Shown here one piece after another: positions 14,811-33,685 of a stretch of 64,000 bases of DNA. This stretch comes from a virus (lineage: Duplodnaviria; Caudoviricetes): the IMG/VR virus record IMGVR_UViG_3300031993_000053, positions 1 through 64,000 of that record; one strand, written 5' to 3'. Below the pieces are notes generated by a model. The model worked only from the letters and a program-made list of their open reading frames with translations. It did no database searches and was not told the origin of the DNA. Position 1 is the stretch's first letter. Every line of letters begins with the position of its first letter. The position numbers and the translations under genes were made by a program.

Positions 14811-14885
14811 AGCGGAGTAGAGGAAAGGTACCTCGTGAGACTCATAACCTCAAGGTTGGTGGTTCGAGTCCACCCTCCGCCACCA
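14811..14885 (+). tRNA. tRNA-Met(CAU), initiator-like, encoded CCA
   Basis: cloverleaf: AGCGGAG/CTCCGCC, D-stem GAGG/CCTC, anticodon loop CT CAT AA, T-arm GGTGG TTCGAGT CCACC, ACCA end. Confidence 0.95.
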
Positions 14886-14907: not shown

Positions 14908-15075
14908 TAAACTCGCAAAAACTTTGGCAATAGAGAAAGTCCGCCATGATTAGTAAGGTTAAAAGGGGACGTTACCTCGAGAGTGGGATGGGCTAAGAAG
15001 ACCACATTAAAGAGTGTTCGGACTGTGCGAGACAGCTGGCGTCGAAGCCGATAAACTGGCACGAGGTTAAGTGCA
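14908..15075 (+). ncRNA. candidate structured ncRNA downstream of the tRNA
   Basis: GC-rich non-coding block with nested CTCGCA/TGCGAG and AGTCCG/CGGACT pairings plus internal hairpins. Confidence 0.55.
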
Positions 15076-25701: not shown

Positions 25702-26592
25702 ATGTCTGCAAGAGATACATTAAAATTAATAAATACTACTAATCTTATTAGTGCTGGCTTAAAATATTGTTTGGTCAGCACTGATAAATTACCATTTAAA
25801 ATCAATGGTAAAATTTTACAACCTAATAATATTAATGATTTTGTATCTCTTAAAGAATTAGAAGATTGTAAAATTTTAGATGATTTTGCTGGTATTGGTA
25901 TTTCTATTCAAGGAAGTAATATTTGTGCAATAGATGTAGATCATTGTTTTTCTGTTCCATTTGATCAAAAATCGGCCGATAGGCGAGCTCTTGATGTTAT
26001 AGAGAAATTTAAAAATATTGCATATATTGAATTTAGTTTTAGTGGGACAGGACTTAGATTATTATTTAAACATCCATTAATTGAATGTTATAGTAGATTA
26101 TTTTATATTAAAAATAGTAAAAATCAAATTGAATATTATGAGCCAAGTAAAAGTTATAGATATGTAACGCTTACTGGAAGGAGTATAATTAATAATAATA
26201 TTCATGAATGTCCAGATTCCATACTATATAATTTTCTCAATACTTATATGCTTAAGCCTATAAAAGATGACAGAAGCGAAATTTTAAGCCCTAAAATTGA
26301 AACTAGATCTTTTGAAGAAATATTTGAAAATGTTAAGTATCATTATTTAACAAATCATGTATTTCAAGATAGATGGTTTGGAAAGGCACCTGGTGCTGGA
26401 AAAGATGAAAGTGAAAGAGATTATTATATAATAAATTATATTTATACAAATATTACACAAGATAAAAAAATGATTAAACAAATATTTGAATCAAGTCCTT
26501 ACTTTAAAAGTAAAGATCATCAACATGTGTATAAATGGAATTATAATGATAACCGTTATCTTAATTTCATTTATGATCAAATAAGGAGATAA
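25702..26592 (+). CDS. AEP primase-polymerase (NrS-1-like) with C-terminal helical domain
   Basis: GIG...AIDVDHC, EFSFSGTGLRL, IEYY...RYVTLTG; C-terminal DESERD...QIFESSP. Confidence 0.8.
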   Translation: MSARDTLKLINTTNLISAGLKYCLVSTDKLPFKINGKILQPNNINDFVSLKELEDCKILDDFAGIGISIQGSNICAIDVDHCFSVPFDQKSADRRALDVIEKFKNIAYIEFSFSGTGLRLLFKHPLIECYSRLFYIKNSKNQIEYYEPSKSYRYVTLTGRSIINNNIHECPDSILYNFLNTYMLKPIKDDRSEILSPKIETRSFEEIFENVKYHYLTNHVFQDRWFGKAPGAGKDESERDYYIINYIYTNITQDKKMIKQIFESSPYFKSKDHQHVYKWNYNDNRYLNFIYDQIRR

Positions 26593-26593
26593 T

Positions 26594-26920
26594 ATGAATA
26601 ATAAAGATTTTGAAAAATTAGTTGATGAACAATTTGAAATGTGTAAATCTGTTTTATGTAATAAATCTAAAGAATATGATTTTGGCGAAGATAGATTACA
26701 TAGTTTTAAAGTTGCTAGCCAGCTTTTAAAAAGCACGCCAGAAGAAGCTTTAATGGGATATTTAACTAAACATATTATGAGCTTATATGATATGGTGCCA
26801 GAAATTGATAAGTTTAGTTATGATAAATTTAATGAAAAAATAGTCGATATTTTAAATTATTGTTTATTATTAAAAGGTCTTCTTTATGAAAGGAAAAAGA
26901 TTGATGAGTCAAGCAGATAA
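26594..26920 (+). CDS. DUF1599-like nucleotide-modification-associated alpha-helical protein
   Basis: K.KEYD..EDRLHSFK...GYLTKH...EKIVDILNYCLL pattern, adjacent to the TS-like gene. Confidence 0.6.
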   Translation: MNNKDFEKLVDEQFEMCKSVLCNKSKEYDFGEDRLHSFKVASQLLKSTPEEALMGYLTKHIMSLYDMVPEIDKFSYDKFNEKIVDILNYCLLLKGLLYERKKIDESSR

Positions 26921-27743
26921 ATATTTTATTGAAGAAACTTTTGATCTTTTAACAAAAGGATTTAACGATAAAGATTTTAATGTTAGGCCACATTGGTCTG
27001 ATGGAACTCCTGCTCATACAATTAAAACTTTTTGTAGAATTAATAGATATGATTTATCAAAAGAATTTCCGATCCTTACATTAAGAAAAGCTCCATTTAA
27101 TTATGCAGTAAAAGAAATATTATGGATTTTTCAAAAAAAATCAAATAATATAAATGATCTTGATAGTCATAATTGGGATTCATGGGCAGATGAAAATGGA
27201 TCAATTGGAAAAACATATGGTTATGTAGCAGGCGAAAAATATGAATATCCAGAAGGATTAATGGACCAAGTTGATAATGTTCTTTGGTGCTTAAAAAATA
27301 GACCAATGGATAGGCGAATGATAATTCAATTATTTAGACCAGAATATATAAAAGAATCTGGTTTGCCGCCATGCTTGTGTTCATATTTTTTTGATGTTGC
27401 TGGAGATAAATTAAATATGACTGTTATTATGCGTAGCTGTGATATGCTAAGTGCAGCAGGAGCTGGTGAATCTGATGAAATTGGAATGGCAATTTTACAG
27501 CATATGTTTGCGCAAGTATCTAATTTAAAAGTTGGCGAATTAGTAGTTATTAAAAATAATTTTCATGTTTATGATAGGCATTTAGATATTGTTAAAAAAA
27601 TATGTAATAATAAAGCCTATGTAGCACCAACATTTTGGATAAATCCAGAAATTAAAAATTTTTATGATTTTAAGCCTGAAGATTTTAAACTTATCGATTA
27701 TAATTATACAAAATTAGAAGAAAAAATTGAGGTAGCAATATGA
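26904..27743 (+). CDS. thymidylate-synthase-family protein with atypical specificity residues (possible dCMP methylase/hydroxymethylase)
   Basis: RPHWSDGTPAHT, FPILTLR, DRR, LPPC (catalytic Cys), MRSCD, HVYDRH; conserved Asn replaced by Asp (codon 27474-27476). Confidence 0.9.
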   Translation: MSQADKYFIEETFDLLTKGFNDKDFNVRPHWSDGTPAHTIKTFCRINRYDLSKEFPILTLRKAPFNYAVKEILWIFQKKSNNINDLDSHNWDSWADENGSIGKTYGYVAGEKYEYPEGLMDQVDNVLWCLKNRPMDRRMIIQLFRPEYIKESGLPPCLCSYFFDVAGDKLNMTVIMRSCDMLSAAGAGESDEIGMAILQHMFAQVSNLKVGELVVIKNNFHVYDRHLDIVKKICNNKAYVAPTFWINPEIKNFYDFKPEDFKLIDYNYTKLEEKIEVAI

Positions 27744-28156
27744 AAATTAAATTATTAGGTGATACTAAATGTCCTGAACGTAAAAGAAAAAATGATTGTG
27801 GTTGGGACTTTTATCTAAATGATTTTGTTTGTTTTCATAAGGGTGAAACAACAACTGTTGATACTGGCGTTTGTGTTGAGATTCCTGAAGGTTGGGCTGG
27901 ATTATTTGCATTAAGAAGCTCAATTTGTAAAACTGGTTTAACTCTTCAAAATCCATTAGTGGATAACAATTATAGAGGTGAACTTCATCTTTTAATAACG
28001 AATAATACAGATAAAGATTTTTGTTTTTATAAGGGTGATAGAATTGCATCATTATATTGTTTTCCATACTTAACTGAAGATTTAGAAATTGTTGAAGAAT
28101 TAAGTGAAACAGATCGTGGAGATAAATGGAACGGAAGTTCCAATCAGATAGCTTAG
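27740..28156 (+). CDS. trimeric dUTPase-family protein, divergent
   Basis: GWDFY, LRSS, VDNNYRGE, GDRIAS, SETDRG..NGS motifs. Confidence 0.85.
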   Translation: MKIKLLGDTKCPERKRKNDCGWDFYLNDFVCFHKGETTTVDTGVCVEIPEGWAGLFALRSSICKTGLTLQNPLVDNNYRGELHLLITNNTDKDFCFYKGDRIASLYCFPYLTEDLEIVEELSETDRGDKWNGSSNQIA

Positions 28157-28184
28157 AGGCTCTTAGCTTCGCTAGAGCTCCTAA
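28153..28184 (+). terminator. hairpin after the dUTPase-like gene
   Basis: GCTCT-TAGC TTC GCTA-GAGC stem; weak U-tract. Confidence 0.5.
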
Positions 28185-28202
28185 ACTATTTATATAAAGC
28201 CA

Positions 28203-28231
28203 TTTACAAATTTGATAAAACATGATATAAT
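28203..28231 (+). promoter_or_regulatory. sigma70-type promoter TTTACA-N17-TATAAT
   Basis: direct reading, with TG extension. Confidence 0.75.
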
Positions 28232-28240
28232 ATTTATATA

Positions 28241-28340
28241 GCCAAGACACAATTAATAAATAAAGCTTTAATTATAGCATATTATGTGAATGTGTCTTGG
28301 CGGATAAAACCATATAATATGCTATCATTAAAGCTTTATT
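28241..28340 (+). ncRNA. leader RNA with crossed A-B-A'-B' complementarity
   Basis: 28241-28251 pairs with 28291-28301; 28259-28287 pairs with 28312-28340. Confidence 0.55.
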
Positions 28341-28370
28341 TTTAATTTATAGAAAGGTTATATAAATATT

Positions 28371-29216
28371 ATGGAAAAAAATGGTTGCTACGTTTATAAA
28401 CATACTTGTATAATTACTGGAAAATCATATATTGGTTGGTGTTCAAGAAATCCAAAATATCGTTGGGGTAAAAATGGTTCAAATTATTTAGTAAAAAGTG
28501 GGGATAGATTATTTGACCATAAAAAATTTGCTCCTGCAATTTTAAAATATGGATGGAATAATTTTACACATGATATACTATTTTATAATCTTACTGAAAA
28601 AGAAGCATTAGAAAAAGAAAAAGAAATGATAATAAAATATGATTCTTTTAAAAATGGTTATAATAGCACTCTTGGTGGTGATGGTAGTACAGGTAGAAAT
28701 CATACAGAAGAATCTAAAAATAAAGTATCTGCAACAAAACTTAAATCGAGTAAAATTATTTATTGTTATAATAAATTTGGTGAATTAGTTTGCGCTATGA
28801 AAGGTTATAAACAAATTGCAAAATATTTAAATTTACCAAGCGGAGGAATTGCTGATTGTTGTATAAAAGTTAAAGACCAACATAATTCACATAGAACAGC
28901 ATATGGATATGTATTTGCAAATATAAAATTAACTAAAAATGAAATCAAAAAACGATATGAAAGTTATAAAAAGAAATTTGATTGTATTTATATGTATGAT
29001 ATTATTAGTGAAAAATTAATAAATAAATTTTATTCCTATGAAGAAGCGATTAAAAATTCTAATATATGTAGAAGTAGTATATCAGGGTGTTGTAATGGTA
29101 GAACTCGTTTTGTAAAAAATTATATTTTTTCATTTAAAGAATTATCTAAAAATGAATTATTATTAAGAAAAAAATATTTTAATATAAAACATAAAAGGGA
29201 GTTGAATAATTATTGA
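28371..29216 (+). mobile_element. free-standing GIY-YIG homing endonuclease gene with NUMOD-type DNA-binding repeats
   Basis: CYVYKHT...KSYIGW...RW...AILKYGWNNF...E...GYN..GG; two C-terminal I..CC....(TAY/V)..Y.F repeats. Confidence 0.9.
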
Positions 29217-31022
29217 ATTTAATTATCTATGATTTCGAAGTGTTTAAACGAGCGTGTTTGCTAGGAACAATTATAGTAAAAGAAACGGGAGAAGAAAAAT
29301 TATTTCAAACATGGGATTTAAATACGATCAAACAATTTTATTTAGATTATAAAGATGATTCTATTTTTGTTGGATGGAATAGTAAATATTATGATGATTT
29401 AATTTTAGAAGCAATTATTAAAAATAAAGATCCATTTGAAATATCTAAAAAAATTATCGAAAATCATGAATCATTGTGGTGTAATTTAAAATTTTATACA
29501 TATGATGTTATGAATACTGGATTTGCTAGCCAGATATCATTAAAATTAACTGAACTTATATCAGGCGATTCTGTTGAAACAACAGAAGTTGATTTTAATC
29601 TTGATAGGGATTTAACGGAAGAAGAAAAAAAATTAACTGAAAAATATAACCAAGCTGATTTAAAAAAGACCTTTTATAATTTTAAAAAAATATATGATCG
29701 TTTTGAATTAAGACTTGGAATTATTAATGATTGGAATCTTAATTTAATGAAATGTTTAAACATGACTGGTGCTCAAATAGCAGCAGAAGTGCTTCAAGCA
29801 AAAAAAGATCCATCATTAGAATTTAAACCAGTCAAACCAATTTTATATGATAATTTACAAGTTGAAAATAAACAGGCTTTAAATTATTATTTAGAAGAAA
29901 AATTTAGAATTGGTAACTATTTTGAAACAATAAAAATTGGAAATGCTGAGTTAACTCTTGGCGCAGGAGGCTTACACCAAGCCATTAAGAAGTGTTATTA
30001 TGACCGCTTAATGTACTTGGATGTGCGGCTTCGGCCGCAAATGAGTTAGCGGATATTATAATTTAATAGAAATTAATTTTGATTTGTTTTCAAGAACTAT
30101 CTCAGAAGAAGGCAAACGTCGTTATAAAATGATGTATGATCAACAAATAGAACTTAAAAAAATTAATCCAGATTCACCTAAGCGTAAACAATTTAAAACA
30201 ATTTTGTTATCTGTTTTTGGTGCACAATCTTTTGAGGGATCTGCATTTTATGACCCATATATTGGTAAATTAATTCCAATAACAGGCGAATTATTTATGA
30301 TTGACTTTCTTGAAAAAATTCACCATTTATGTACAATAGTTCAAACAAACTCTGATGGTGCAATGATTAAACCTAATTCTGATGAAGCTGAAAAAGAAAT
30401 ATTAAATATTTTAAAAAGTTGGCTAGATCGAACAAAGTTTGTAATTAAACCAAAATATATTTATGACCTTGTACAAAGAGATGTCAATAACTATGTTTAT
30501 AGAGATGAAAAAGGAAATCTTGAAGTTAAGGGTGAAGCATTAAAAAATTATAATTTTGATGATAAAGAATATTCAGCAGGAACAATATTTAATTGTAAAG
30601 AGCCTTCAATAATTGCTAAAGGTGTTGTTGATTATTTAATGTATGATATATCACCTGAAGAAACTGTTGATAAATATAAAGAAGATTTAAGATTATTTCA
30701 ATATGCTTGTAAAAAAGGTGGATATAATTATTTAACATATGATACTGTTTATTATCCATCGCGAGAAACTAGTTCATATGAAATACAAAGCCCGAGTCGT
30801 GTTTTTGCTTATAATTCTAATACTGAAGCTGGTATGGTTTATAAGCACGGTATAAATAAAAAATCTGGTAAAATATCTCAAGCTAAAGTATCTAATTTAC
30901 CAGATAATGTATTTATTTATAATGATAGTATTATTGGAAAGTATGAAGAATTAAAAGATAAAATCGATTGGCAATATTATGTTGATCGTATATATGAAAA
31001 AATAGAAAATTTTATATCATAA
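29213..31022 (+). CDS. family B DNA polymerase, interrupted by a 22-nt insert (30023-30047) in motif A
   Basis: Exo motifs YDFE, GWNSKYYD; rejoined motif A YLDV|SGYYN; motif B KRKQFKTILLSVFG; motif C QTNSDG; DVNNY. Confidence 0.88.
30023..30047 (+). other. putative ribosomal bypass element: GTG take-off, TGCGGC-TTCG-GCCGCA hairpin, GTT landing
   Basis: removing exactly 22 nt restores D-V-S-G-Y-Y-N; downstream frame opens at 30045 right after a TGA. Confidence 0.7.
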
Positions 31023-31034
31023 GGAGAATTAAAA

Positions 31035-31427
31035 ATGGCAAAAATTAATTTAGAATCAAAAATGGCCAAATTGTATGAGTTACAAACTCAATTAAAACGT
31101 GATTTAGAAGATCACAAAAAATTAGTAAAACAATATAAATTATTAATTGATATTGTTACAAAATCAAATAAAAGTAAAGATTTACCAAAAGATTTTTTAG
31201 AAGCTATTAAAAATTATTGTAAACAATCTGATGAAATTGTTAAAAAGATTAATTTACGTTTAACTTATATTGCAACATTAACAGATTGGTATGAAAAGAA
31301 AGATGAAAAATCTGTTATTGTTGATCAAGTTGTAACACTAACTTTTGAATCTCTTGGTATTATGGATGAACCTGTTCCTGCTCAAGAGCCAGCCGAGGAA
31401 CAACCAATTGAGGAAAAAGCTGAGTAA
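31035..31427 (+). CDS. coiled-coil hypothetical protein
   Basis: ORF track; aaggag RBS. Confidence 0.75.
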   Translation: MAKINLESKMAKLYELQTQLKRDLEDHKKLVKQYKLLIDIVTKSNKSKDLPKDFLEAIKNYCKQSDEIVKKINLRLTYIATLTDWYEKKDEKSVIVDQVVTLTFESLGIMDEPVPAQEPAEEQPIEEKAE

Positions 31428-31648: not shown

Positions 31649-33685
31649 ATGAAAGATAGAAATTGGTGGAAAAAATTAACAGAAATAGAGCGACTTTTAT
31701 ATAGAGAATTATACAAAAAAGACGCTTACGAATTTGTAAAAGAATTTTGGAGTGAAGTAGATCCAGTTAAATTTGTTGATAGCGTTTTAGTTAAATTTTT
31801 ATGTGAAACATTTCAATATATGGCTCGCCCATGGATAGAATATAAAGGGCCTGAAAAAGAAATTTCGGAAATAAAAATTGATGAAGAAACGGATGTTATT
31901 GATGTTAGAGAAGACAAAAATCAAATAAATATATCTCTTCCACCTCGTCATTCAAAATCAAAAATATTTAATGTCTTATGCCCAACATGGCTATTTATTA
32001 ATACACCAATAAAAGTTGCTTCAGTATCACATACTCAACAACTTGCTGGATCAATGAATATTCAAAGACAAAAATTATTAAATTCTGAAAAATTTAAATT
32101 CTTTTTTCCAGAAATATCTCTTTTAACAAATACAACTTATTCCCTTCGCGATAATCGAAATGGTGAAATGTATAGTATTCCTAAAAATGCTATTACTGGA
32201 TTTGGTTGTTCAGTTATGATAGTTGATGACTTAGTTAATGTTATGCAAGCTAAACGTGATGCGGCTGAAATGAATTCAAGTTGGATAACTTATACCGAGA
32301 CTTTACCTTCACGTATTGATGATGTTAGTAAATATATTTGGTTCAATATTATGCAAAGAATTGCACCAAATGATATTACTGGCCGTATTTTAAGCAATCC
32401 TAAACTTGCTGAAGCTTATACTTTTGTTGTTTTACCAGCTCAATTTGAAAAACATACTTATCTTGTTTGTCCAATTTCTGGTGATGTCTATGAATTTCAA
32501 AAAGATGATTATTTATGCCCAGAACGATTTGGAGATTATTCTTCAATTAGACAAAATGTAACAACGGATGTTTGGAATGCTCAATATTTGCAAAAGCCAA
32601 TTGCTGGAGATAGAACAGTTATAAAAGAAGATATGATTATAGAAAAGGATGCTTGTGATTGTCCTGAAATTGATCAAGCTGATATGATTTATGCCTCGCA
32701 TGACTTCCCTGTTAAAGATAAAGATACATCTGACTTTTTGGGTTCTGTATTAGCATATCGTGTTGGAATGAATTTATATATAAAAGATTGCTTAGAAAAA
32801 AGAATGGCCTTTGTTAGTCAAGTTGAATATGTTAAATCACTTGATAATGTCTATAAAGGTTGCATACAAATTATAGAAGATAAAGCTAACGGAACCGCAG
32901 TTATAAATCAACTGCAGGATGCCGTTGCTGGCCTACAGGCCTTTCAACCAGGAACTCAAAGTAAAATGCAAAGATTAGAATCAGCTTCACTTTATATGCA
33001 AAATGTTATATTTATTAGAAATGGATTTAATAAATTAACAACATCATATTATTTGAGTGATTCCATCAATAATCTTAAAAAGCGATTACTTAACTTCCCA
33101 TTTGTTCAACATGATGATATAGTTGATGCCTTCAGCCAATTATGTTTATTTGTCTTCATGGATCGTAAATATATGGTCTATGGAAGATCATTTAATCAAG
33201 AAAATATTATTGAAGCCACAAAAGATTATTCATATTCTACTATCTTCTTTAATAAAGAAGGAGACATTTGGAAAGTGCTAGATATTGCAATAGAATATGG
33301 AGCAATAACTAAATTAATTGTTTTAAGAGAATTAATATTTAAATCATCTCTTTCTGATGGTCTTACTAAATTAAAAGAGTTCGCTCCTGATAAAAATGTC
33401 TTTATTGATGCCTCATATTCAGAAGCTTTATCTGGAATGTATACAAAAGATGTTGTAATTGAAAAATATGTTGATGAAGACTTTGAAAAATCAGTTGCGC
33501 AATTAAATATGGCCTTTGCTAATAAAACAGTATTAATTGATAAACAATGTAAATTAGTAAAGGCGGATATTGATAATTTTAAATATGATAAGACAAAAGA
33601 TGAGCAAATGAAATTTAAAACAGAAAAAGACGGATTTGTTGCATGTATAAGAAGCGCAATGAAATATTATGGTGGTATAATATAA
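31649..33685 (+). CDS. terL: terminase large subunit with extended C-terminus
   Basis: SLPPRHSKS Walker A, MIVDDL Walker B, MQR coupling motif, YLQKP, IIEDKANG, HDDIVDAFSQ nuclease motif. Confidence 0.92.
   Translation: MKDRNWWKKLTEIERLLYRELYKKDAYEFVKEFWSEVDPVKFVDSVLVKFLCETFQYMARPWIEYKGPEKEISEIKIDEETDVIDVREDKNQINISLPPRHSKSKIFNVLCPTWLFINTPIKVASVSHTQQLAGSMNIQRQKLLNSEKFKFFFPEISLLTNTTYSLRDNRNGEMYSIPKNAITGFGCSVMIVDDLVNVMQAKRDAAEMNSSWITYTETLPSRIDDVSKYIWFNIMQRIAPNDITGRILSNPKLAEAYTFVVLPAQFEKHTYLVCPISGDVYEFQKDDYLCPERFGDYSSIRQNVTTDVWNAQYLQKPIAGDRTVIKEDMIIEKDACDCPEIDQADMIYASHDFPVKDKDTSDFLGSVLAYRVGMNLYIKDCLEKRMAFVSQVEYVKSLDNVYKGCIQIIEDKANGTAVINQLQDAVAGLQAFQPGTQSKMQRLESASLYMQNVIFIRNGFNKLTTSYYLSDSINNLKKRLLNFPFVQHDDIVDAFSQLCLFVFMDRKYMVYGRSFNQENIIEATKDYSYSTIFFNKEGDIWKVLDIAIEYGAITKLIVLRELIFKSSLSDGLTKLKEFAPDKNVFIDASYSEALSGMYTKDVVIEKYVDEDFEKSVAQLNMAFANKTVLIDKQCKLVKADIDNFKYDKTKDEQMKFKTEKDGFVACIRSAMKYYGGII

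Follow-up and report, generated by a model that had tools for sequence, protein, structure and literature searches.

Natural ribosomal bypassing is established for gene 60 of phage T4 with its homologues and for one group of yeast mitochondria, besides which there are a few unconfirmed cases, and the reviews of the subject report no bypass in a polymerase and none in a phage outside the gene 60 lineage (PMC5009743; 10.1101/2022.08.31.505936). The gene 60 cassettes are marked by matched or wobble-related codons, a stop or 'hungry' codon after take-off, a take-off codon held in the 5' arm of a stem-loop and the lack of premature landing triplets (10.1101/2022.08.31.505936). In T4 itself, the bypass of 50 nucleotides (nt) lies within the MobA homing-endonuclease element, as it is related in 10.1101/2022.08.31.505936 with reference to Bonocora et al. 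2011. The byp inserts in the mitochondria of Magnusiomyces capitatus are 27–55 nt long (PMC5009743; 10.1101/2022.08.31.505936), and no natural in-frame stop-hop is known according to one review (PMC5009743). On the side of the endonucleases, the Seg enzymes of the GIY-YIG family are free-standing in T4-like phages, and a seg insertion is associated with the B-type polymerase gene 43 of Aeromonas phage 25 (PMC2988022). Here we describe a 64-kilobase (kb) stretch of DNA (the window) out of the 73.5-kb IMG/VR virus record IMGVR_UViG_3300031993_000053, which is rated complete and belongs to a cattle-gut phage. Its gene for a family B DNA polymerase (polB) is broken in motif A by a 22-nt insert and follows directly on a gene for a GIY-YIG homing endonuclease. 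A ribosomal hop is the most likely reading of the insert as judged from the sequence, and on balance we favour the view that ribosomes hop over the 22 nt and that the inserts are nuclease-resistant alleles of a GIY-YIG homing target ('saviour indels'). The insert belongs to an allelic series of polB inserts, which is new here.

The insert in motif A of polB

The two parts of polB lie in different frames, the N part in frame 2 as far as its UAG stop and the C part in frame 0 from the GTT at the landing site (Table 1). The preliminary description of this DNA had put a 22-nt insert in the most conserved stretch of polB, and the alignment bears this out. Compared with the intact genes of the relatives L002 (70% amino acid identity to the window's polB) and L003, exactly 22 extra nt stand between the Val and the Ser codons of motif A. 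Their removal restores motif A as it is seen in about 90 relatives from viral and metagenome collections (loci bear labels with L, proteins labels with P), in which polB is uninterrupted across this motif; the sequence there is an unbroken Asp-Val-Ser-Gly-Tyr-Tyr-Asn. The insert had also been taken for a bypass sequence, and the marks of such a site are present, namely matched Val codons, CGG after the first of them, a hairpin, and a gap (30026-30044) with no GUN triplet, i.e. no premature landing site. No sense codon is rarer in the window than CGG (3 of 16,443 codons), and the 14-nt core of the hairpin occurs once in the window, with 0 occurrences expected. Moreover, the insert is one of nine GC-rich (guanine- and cytosine-rich) spots and the sole frame-breaking one, the others being in-frame coding or non-coding RNA-like sequence. 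Exact searches of viral contigs for the insert and for the GC-rich flank before it gave no match, and Rfam has nothing on the 22-nt insert, for which a group I intron is ruled out also by length. Dispersal in the manner of byp or of GC clusters was not seen, the insert being single-copy in the window and without a copy in the viral contigs.

We propose that a ribosome with peptidyl-tRNA(Val) on the GUG at 30023-25 would stall, the next codon being CGG, the rarest by the phage's own codon counts. The C(UUCG)G hairpin, take-off codon included, would fold, and the tRNA would release and re-pair with the next Val codon, the GUU at 30045-47. Decoding would restart at AGC and give the canonical motif A and a polymerase of ~595 amino acids. 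Ribosomes that fail to hop would stop at the UAG and leave a 278-amino-acid fragment with the exonuclease domain. The hairpin may serve to compact the 22-nt gap to roughly the length of the alleles without a hairpin that are described below.

A +1 shift at AGU-UAG (30044-49) in place of a hop would give a polymerase with eight extra residues in motif A. A stop codon in the A site is a classic +1 stimulator, a move of 1 nt would suffice and the landing frame is open at 30045, but a tRNA(Ser) on AGU is unable to re-pair with GUU, and none of about 90 relatives has anything to match an eight-residue extension between the catalytic Asp and the steric-gate Tyr. Such a shift would also need prior decoding of CGG, CGG and CCG, and the other alleles would need other shifts (+2 or -1), while the same motif is restored in all of them by hopping alone. 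We therefore hold a +1 shift to be very unlikely. It is scarcely credible that unconventional splicing or transcriptional skipping takes the 22 nt out of the mRNA, or that the two halves act as separate subunits. The insert is indeed a compact hairpin, and in eukaryotes unconventional splicing of short hairpin-flanked inserts exists. However, an RtcB-type ligase was not found encoded in the genome, Rfam gave no match, 22 nt are too short for a ribozyme, and a hairpin is lacking in the 5- and 8-nt alleles. As for separate subunits, neither a ribosome-binding site nor a plausible start for the C part lies ahead of the conserved residues, and a split at this site would lose essential motif A residues.

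The profile of the relatives' polB finds archaeal polymerases as well as Pol alpha and Pol II, and motif A and the region of motif C line up in these matches; the interrupted site falls on motif A (DxxSLYPS) of the solved family B polymerases in the profile alignment. ExoI, motif A and motif C are present in order, and the pieces in the window jointly cover profile positions 2–583. Pfam called neither half at an E value of 0.01, no polB model reaching the threshold; it is from PHROGs and from the profile match to family B polymerases that the interrupted gene is identified as a family B DNA polymerase. Neither a PolA nor another polB is encoded in the genome, so the interrupted polB is the phage's only polymerase. 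Between the window and L088, which both bear inserts, the ratio of nonsynonymous to synonymous substitution rates (dN/dS) is 0.15 in the N part and 0.16 in the C part, with dS of 0.6–0.76 and no further breaks. Both halves are thus under purifying selection between two insert-bearing genomes, which argues that polB stayed functional while it was interrupted. This argument assumes that the insert was already present in the common ancestor of the window and L088, as is supported by the flank and the first insert bases that they share.

These data bear on the possibility that the gene is dead, either because a defective phage has lately suffered an inactivating mutation or through an artefact of assembly. 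The genome is derived from a metagenome. A second assembly, from a bovine gut run, reproduces 28100-31100 with 0 differences at a depth of 13.5; the run is probably the source sample of the record, and the second assembly would then use the same reads, so that an assembler artefact is excluded, yet the data are not independent. Against a dead gene stand the low dN/dS (about 0.15 in both halves, no other breaks), the position of polB as sole polymerase in a genome rated complete, and four different inserts at one codon, from separate samples and assemblies, all with matched codons. Furthermore, a 22-nt GC hairpin is atypical for sequencing error. We consider a dead gene or an artefact highly improbable.

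Different inserts at the same codon in related phages

Other frame-breaking inserts are found at the same codon in three related phages, and they measure 5 nt, 8 nt and ~14 nt. The 5-nt insert is carried by L087 and L088 (two independent assemblies), whose polB is 84–88% identical to that of the window; a hop from GUC to GUU would skip CG, the next zero-frame codon is CGG, and a GIY-YIG gene lies between the thymidylate-synthase and dUTPase genes. The 8-nt insert is seen in L097 (65% identical to the window), on a contig that starts here, where a hop from UCC to UCU would skip UGA AU. The third, P0123/P0129 (66–76% identical), is known from an ENA assembly, a Logan contig and a third contig on record. 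Its N part ends in Asp-Val-Ser-stop, and the gene coordinates imply an insert of ~14 nt from codon to codon, of which ~11 would be skipped, into the +2 frame. The endonuclease on its contig is the closest to that of the window (66% identical) and stands in the same position. In the window the corresponding hop would lead from GUG to GUU over 19 nt starting with CGG.

The pairs of take-off and landing codons (GUG/GUU, GUC/GUU and UCC/UCU) are each readable by one tRNA, and the codon after take-off is CGG in the window and L088, UGA in L097 and a stop in P0123. The three alleles that could be read as DNA each pair a seldom-used synonym at take-off with the common one at landing. A hop between the matched codons restores the canonical motif in every allele, and no single frameshift rule can do so, since the frame is +1 in the window and +2 in the other alleles. 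By our own estimate, a random insert would have matched codons with a chance of ~1/8 and a stop or CGG next with a chance of ~1/16; three independent alleles with both features are thus very unlikely to arise by chance. The 5- and 8-nt alleles have no hairpin. In addition, a GC-rich flank of ~66 nt with rare codons is shared almost base for base by the window, L087 and L088, and the same 66 nt have 29–30% GC in L002 and L014, which lack an insert. The shared flank points to common descent of the window and L088 alleles and is possibly a short conversion tract. A search of viral contigs with P0123 found nothing, and one with the alignment A3 of close relatives found the known loci and two distant intact relatives, with no new insert allele. 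P0124 and P0125, whose N parts are truncated at other positions, were set aside as probable assembly ends, since they lie at contig ends. In one sequencing run, the contig of a relative matches the window from exactly 30045 on and is dissimilar before that point; no weight is placed on this observation.

The neighbouring endonuclease gene and the origin of the inserts

The preliminary description had also reported a GIY-YIG gene with its own promoter overlapping the polB start, and this was confirmed by a check of open reading frames (ORFs) and by a promoter with 11 of 12 consensus matches. The TGA stop of the gene (29214-29216) lies in the TTG start of polB (29213-29215), with an overlap of 4 nt. 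The 281-amino-acid protein matches phrog_314 'homing endonuclease' in PHROGs (3e-21), its database homologues have PF01541, NUMOD1 and NUMOD3 domains, and the alignment of its family shows little or no variation at Y9, Y20, G22, R31, E83 and N98. The family profile matches the catalytic domain of I-TevI (1MK0) at 2e-7, while a PDB search with the single sequence found nothing. Pfam made no call at an E value of 0.01, and at 10 it gave weak NUMOD hints only, PF01541 not being reached. By these sequence matches, the protein is a GIY-YIG homing endonuclease; its gene is the only copy in the genome.

The near-consensus promoter (28203-28231) has TTTACA, a 17-nt spacer, TATAAT and an upstream TG, starts 47 nt past the dUTPase stop and is kept in L084. 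The inserted block measures ~1,056 nt, and its 3' end provides the ribosome-binding site and TTG start of polB. The stretch 28157-28370 is missing from L002, L014 and L003, where dUTPase abuts polB. L084 has the same TGA/TTG junction at the 3' end although its upstream gene is a primase, which ties the cassette to polB and not to dUTPase. The leader contains a hairpin of ~29 pairs (28240-28345; L084:125-240), of which 8 pairs are altered on both sides in comparison with L084. It gave no Rfam family at the gathering score, with sub-threshold miRNA-like matches only, and may control expression of the endonuclease. A second pairing in the leader, GCCAAGAYAC with its complement, interleaves with the long hairpin like a pseudoknot and also has compensatory changes between the window and L084.

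The distribution of the endonuclease is sporadic among otherwise collinear genomes. The window, the P0002 contig and L084-86 have it at the start of polB. It is missing in L002, L014, L003 and about 90 other loci, and in the close relatives dUTPase or primase abuts polB. Its homologues occur in three places only among ~100 loci, namely L084-86, L087/88 and L098, the last being 1.8 kb upstream of an intact polB. The absence from L002, L014 and all other relatives with intact polB agrees with the earlier proposal that the endonuclease is a mobile insertion. P0008, an endonuclease homologue on a 69-kb contig, was dropped, since it lies between primase and helicase in an unrelated context.

In every interrupted genome with a known flank, a GIY-YIG gene lies 0–1.3 kb upstream. 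GIY-YIG genes at most 1.3 kb upstream of polB were found only in the window, the P0002 contig, L084-86 and L087/88, and the genomes that have them all carry a frame-breaking polB indel, in motif A or, in L084/L085, in ExoI. In the polB tree all interrupted genes fall in one seven-member clade (support 100/99), where they are interleaved with uninterrupted ones, and the insert-bearing genes are not monophyletic; the interleaving implies two or three events at least in which the motif A site was hit or healed. Within this clade, the indel is found in 4/4 genomes with a GIY-YIG gene at most 1.3 kb away and in 0/2 without.

More distant relatives give evidence on the target. Seven distinct clusters of N-part proteins end just past Asp-Val-Ala of motif A. 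In L110 (1040-1710) and L112 (1010-1747), motif A is broken after Asp-Val/Ile-Ala, at the same codon, by a conserved and strongly folded element (z = -3.75) with a P1-like pairing and then a GIY-YIG ORF. Both contigs end inside the element, which looks like a group-I-type mobile intron; Rfam found no group I intron in L084, L088, L097, L099, L100 or L110. These elements make motif A DNA a demonstrated landing site of GIY-YIG elements in this polymerase family, as had been supposed of the conserved motif A as a homing target. Since motif A DNA is such a target, the inserts are most likely nuclease-resistant alleles, which would survive since hopping still gives enough polymerase. The distance of 0.8 kb between the endonuclease gene and the insert is no objection, because free-standing endonucleases cut hundreds to thousands of base pairs away (PMC2988022).

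Several observations weigh against this account of the window's insert, some of them touching the hop and others the endonuclease. No Shine-Dalgarno-like element stands ~6 nt before the landing codon, where gene 60 would lead one to expect it; the only candidate is GAG at 30043-45, which overlaps that codon. Folds that extend beyond the local hairpin are not better than those of shuffled sequence (z about -1), so that only the local hairpin is claimed. The P0123/P0129 allele is inferred from protein ends and gene coordinates, its landing codon not being seen, and the L097 allele comes from one short contig. The independent lineages are few, 4 to 6. As to the endonuclease, the two most similar endonuclease-bearing genomes carry inserts of different types. 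In L084 and L085 the junction holds an endonuclease that is 55% identical, and yet motif A is uninterrupted, though it differs at otherwise invariant residues. They have instead one extra T in ExoI, 24 nt into polB (L084:1253-1290 and L085; two independent assemblies agree), which gives UUU-UGA and then GAA, arranged as in the +1 frameshift site of prfB. Moreover, the window's polB reads Arg-Ala-Cys in GC-rich codons at 29249-29257, just after ExoI and ~36–45 nt into the gene, where its relatives read Tyr-Asp-Thr with an invariant Asp; L084 and L088 deviate there too. The stretch after ExoI could be the real target of the neighbouring endonuclease, and 29249-29257 may be an immunity site of the substitution type.

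A rival account builds on these data: the hop would be real and the insert unrelated to the neighbouring endonuclease, being a protection against, or a scar of, an intron-borne GIY-YIG element, with the neighbour targeting the 5' end of polB, beside its own point of insertion. The intron-like elements of L110 and L112 and the seven clusters ending at the same codon speak for it, as do the ExoI insert of L084/L085 beside an intact motif A, the deviations at the Asp past ExoI, and L088, which has an insert and no endonuclease at the dUTPase/polB junction. On the other hand, no intron-bearing allele was found within the seven-member clade, polB indel and GIY-YIG gene are always together there, and free-standing endonucleases normally cut far from their own gene (PMC2988022). 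We regard this account as rather unlikely. For the saviour-indel reading, the nuclease concerned may be either the neighbouring free-standing enzyme or an intron-borne one.

The preliminary description had gone further and expected endonuclease and insert to co-occur across relatives and to spread as one cassette. The first expectation holds in so far as polB indels go with a nearby GIY-YIG gene, and fails in that the insert sequences differ and motif A of L084/L085 is intact. The cassette finds no support: the 66%-identical endonuclease goes with a Ser-type insert of ~14 nt and not with the same 22 nt, in L088, whose polB is the closest (84–88%), the insert is one of 5 nt and the GIY-YIG gene is a different one and lies elsewhere, and the 55%-identical endonuclease of L084/L085 goes without a motif A insert, the insert-bearing genes moreover not being monophyletic. 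Since the inserts differ between endonuclease-linked genomes and motif A of L084/L085 is intact, a single co-moving cassette is not shown, and the link of the insert to the endonuclease is partly supported. We put forward as a tentative generalization, which we hold possible, that GIY-YIG attack on motif A repeatedly yields short saviour indels that survive only where a hop is possible, so that short-range bypass would be a recurrent by-product. The indels that permit a hop would be those with matched codons around a stop or starved codon, plus a compacting hairpin if the gap is long.

The coordinates of the locus are collected in Table 1. The phage is one of a small clade of AT-rich (adenine- and thymine-rich) gut and rumen phages. 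Its GC content is 27.5%, and TAA, TAG and TGA are all used to end ORFs, for which reason an alternative genetic code was rejected. Among cultured phages, blastn with 28300-31100 gave no match. A scan of a genome collection gave one distant match, with intact polB, on a contig binned with Roseburia faecis, which is too weak to name a host. Just past motif A, at 30066-30068, the window and L088 have Glu and L084 has Leu, compared with a Met that is invariant in 14 relatives; this suggests an extra protein-level change beside the insert site in the endonuclease-linked genomes. Most other relatives whose downstream flank could be read have a head-morphogenesis-like gene of ~278 amino acids (L002:4928-5764) between polB and the next small ORF, which is missing in the window (31022-31035), L088 and L014. 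Elsewhere in the window, a GC-rich non-coding block (14908-15075) containing one of the nine GC-rich spots adjoins the sole tRNA-Met gene (14811-14885).

Table 1. Positions in the window of polB, its proposed bypass site, the endonuclease cassette and the neighbouring genes
Feature	Position	Strand	Remarks
Primase-polymerase	25702-26592		
Thymidylate-synthase homologue	26886-27743		
dUTPase	27740-28156		
Endonuclease cassette, 5' part	28157-28370	+	promoter-like site, long conserved hairpin (about 28240-28345), ribosome-binding site
Free-standing GIY-YIG homing endonuclease gene (281-amino-acid ORF)	28371-29216	+	assigned by phrog_314, conserved residues and I-TevI profile match
polB ribosome-binding site	29197-29201	+	inside the 3' end of the endonuclease gene, as is the TTG start
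polB piece 1 (ORF)	29213-30049	+	
polB N part	29213-30025	+	exonuclease domain and palm to motif A Asp-Val; phrog_1252, 2e-38; profile positions 2-265
GC-enriched flank	29960-30022	+	45% GC; rare C- or G-ending codons; just 5' of take-off codon
Proposed take-off codon GUG (motif A Val)	30023-30025	+	rare synonym, 38/878 Val codons
Six-pair hairpin, C(UUCG)G tetraloop	30024-30039	+	-11.2 kcal/mol; 5' arm takes in the UG of the take-off GUG
A-site codon at take-off, CGG	30026-30028	+	followed in frame by a second CGG and CCG
Proposed untranslated gap, 19 nt	30026-30044	+	22 nt from take-off codon to landing codon
TGA closing the landing frame	30042-30044	+	immediately 5' of landing codon
Proposed landing codon GUU	30045-30047	+	common Val codon (524/878); relatives' codon at the same position
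Zero-frame stop UAG	30047-30049	+	would end the 278-amino-acid product of non-hopping ribosomes
polB piece 2 (ORF)	30045-31022	+	frame open from 30045
polB C part	30048-31022	+	rest of motif A, fingers, motif C, thumb; phrog_1252, 6e-42; profile positions 264-583
Small ORF	31035-31427		
Large terminase	31649-33685		

Comparison with known systems

If the hop and its proposed origin are true, the locus would be a second phage bypass system, non-homologous to the first, in a different essential gene and with a different nuclease family, and natural short-range bypass would be a recurrent product of the conflict between homing endonucleases and host genes and not an oddity of T4. It would allow one to test concretely whether recoding signals originate in immunity to homing endonucleases. 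The four natural lengths (5, 8, 14 and 22 nt) would form a ladder of hop distances, on which the travel of the tRNA, the contribution of the hairpin and the effect of a starved sense codon as against a stop could be compared. In current annotation, such polymerases appear as two hypothetical genes or as pseudogenes.

The short alleles come nearest to the stop-hops and hungry-codon bypassing in Escherichia coli constructs (Weiss, Gallant and others; PMC5009743), which likewise take a P-site peptidyl-tRNA over a short distance from one codon to a matching one, across a stop or a slowly decoded sense codon; the geometry of the 5- and 8-nt alleles is exactly that of these constructs. The E. coli cases are synthetic or induced by starvation and of low efficiency, whereas the inserts described here are natural, in an essential gene and under selection. 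The byp inserts resemble the window's insert in being GC-rich hairpins in AT-rich coding sequence, with matched codons and an A-site codon that has no efficient decoder; however, there are 81 copies of byp, spread like GC-cluster mobile elements, and here there is a single copy, in a phage and linked to an endonuclease. With the Seg enzymes, the endonuclease shares its free-standing position between conserved replication genes, its own promoter and its sporadic distribution, and its target is expected, as theirs is, hundreds of base pairs away in a neighbouring conserved gene. Seg-bearing genomes resist by base substitutions, and no recoding insert has been described with Seg.

The polB insert does not belong to the gene 60 family. 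The two share no sequence homology, and the gene is polB here and the large-subunit topoisomerase gene there. The gap is 22 nt (5–22 nt across the series) instead of 50 nt, and no Shine-Dalgarno-like element stands at the known spacing. In addition, the endonuclease is of the GIY-YIG family and sits before the gene, whereas MobA of T4 is of the HNH type (PMC2988022, Table 1) and splits it, and the inserts of endonuclease-linked genomes vary in sequence, while the gene 60 cassette is homologous in all its occurrences. Nevertheless, the two have much in common: in both, the gene of an essential replication enzyme is put out of frame by an insert at invariant codons, the take-off codon is held in the 5' arm of a UUCG-type stem-loop and comes before a stop or 'hungry' codon, and a homing endonuclease gene lies just upstream, the role proposed for the insert being to block cleavage of the endonuclease-bearing genome.

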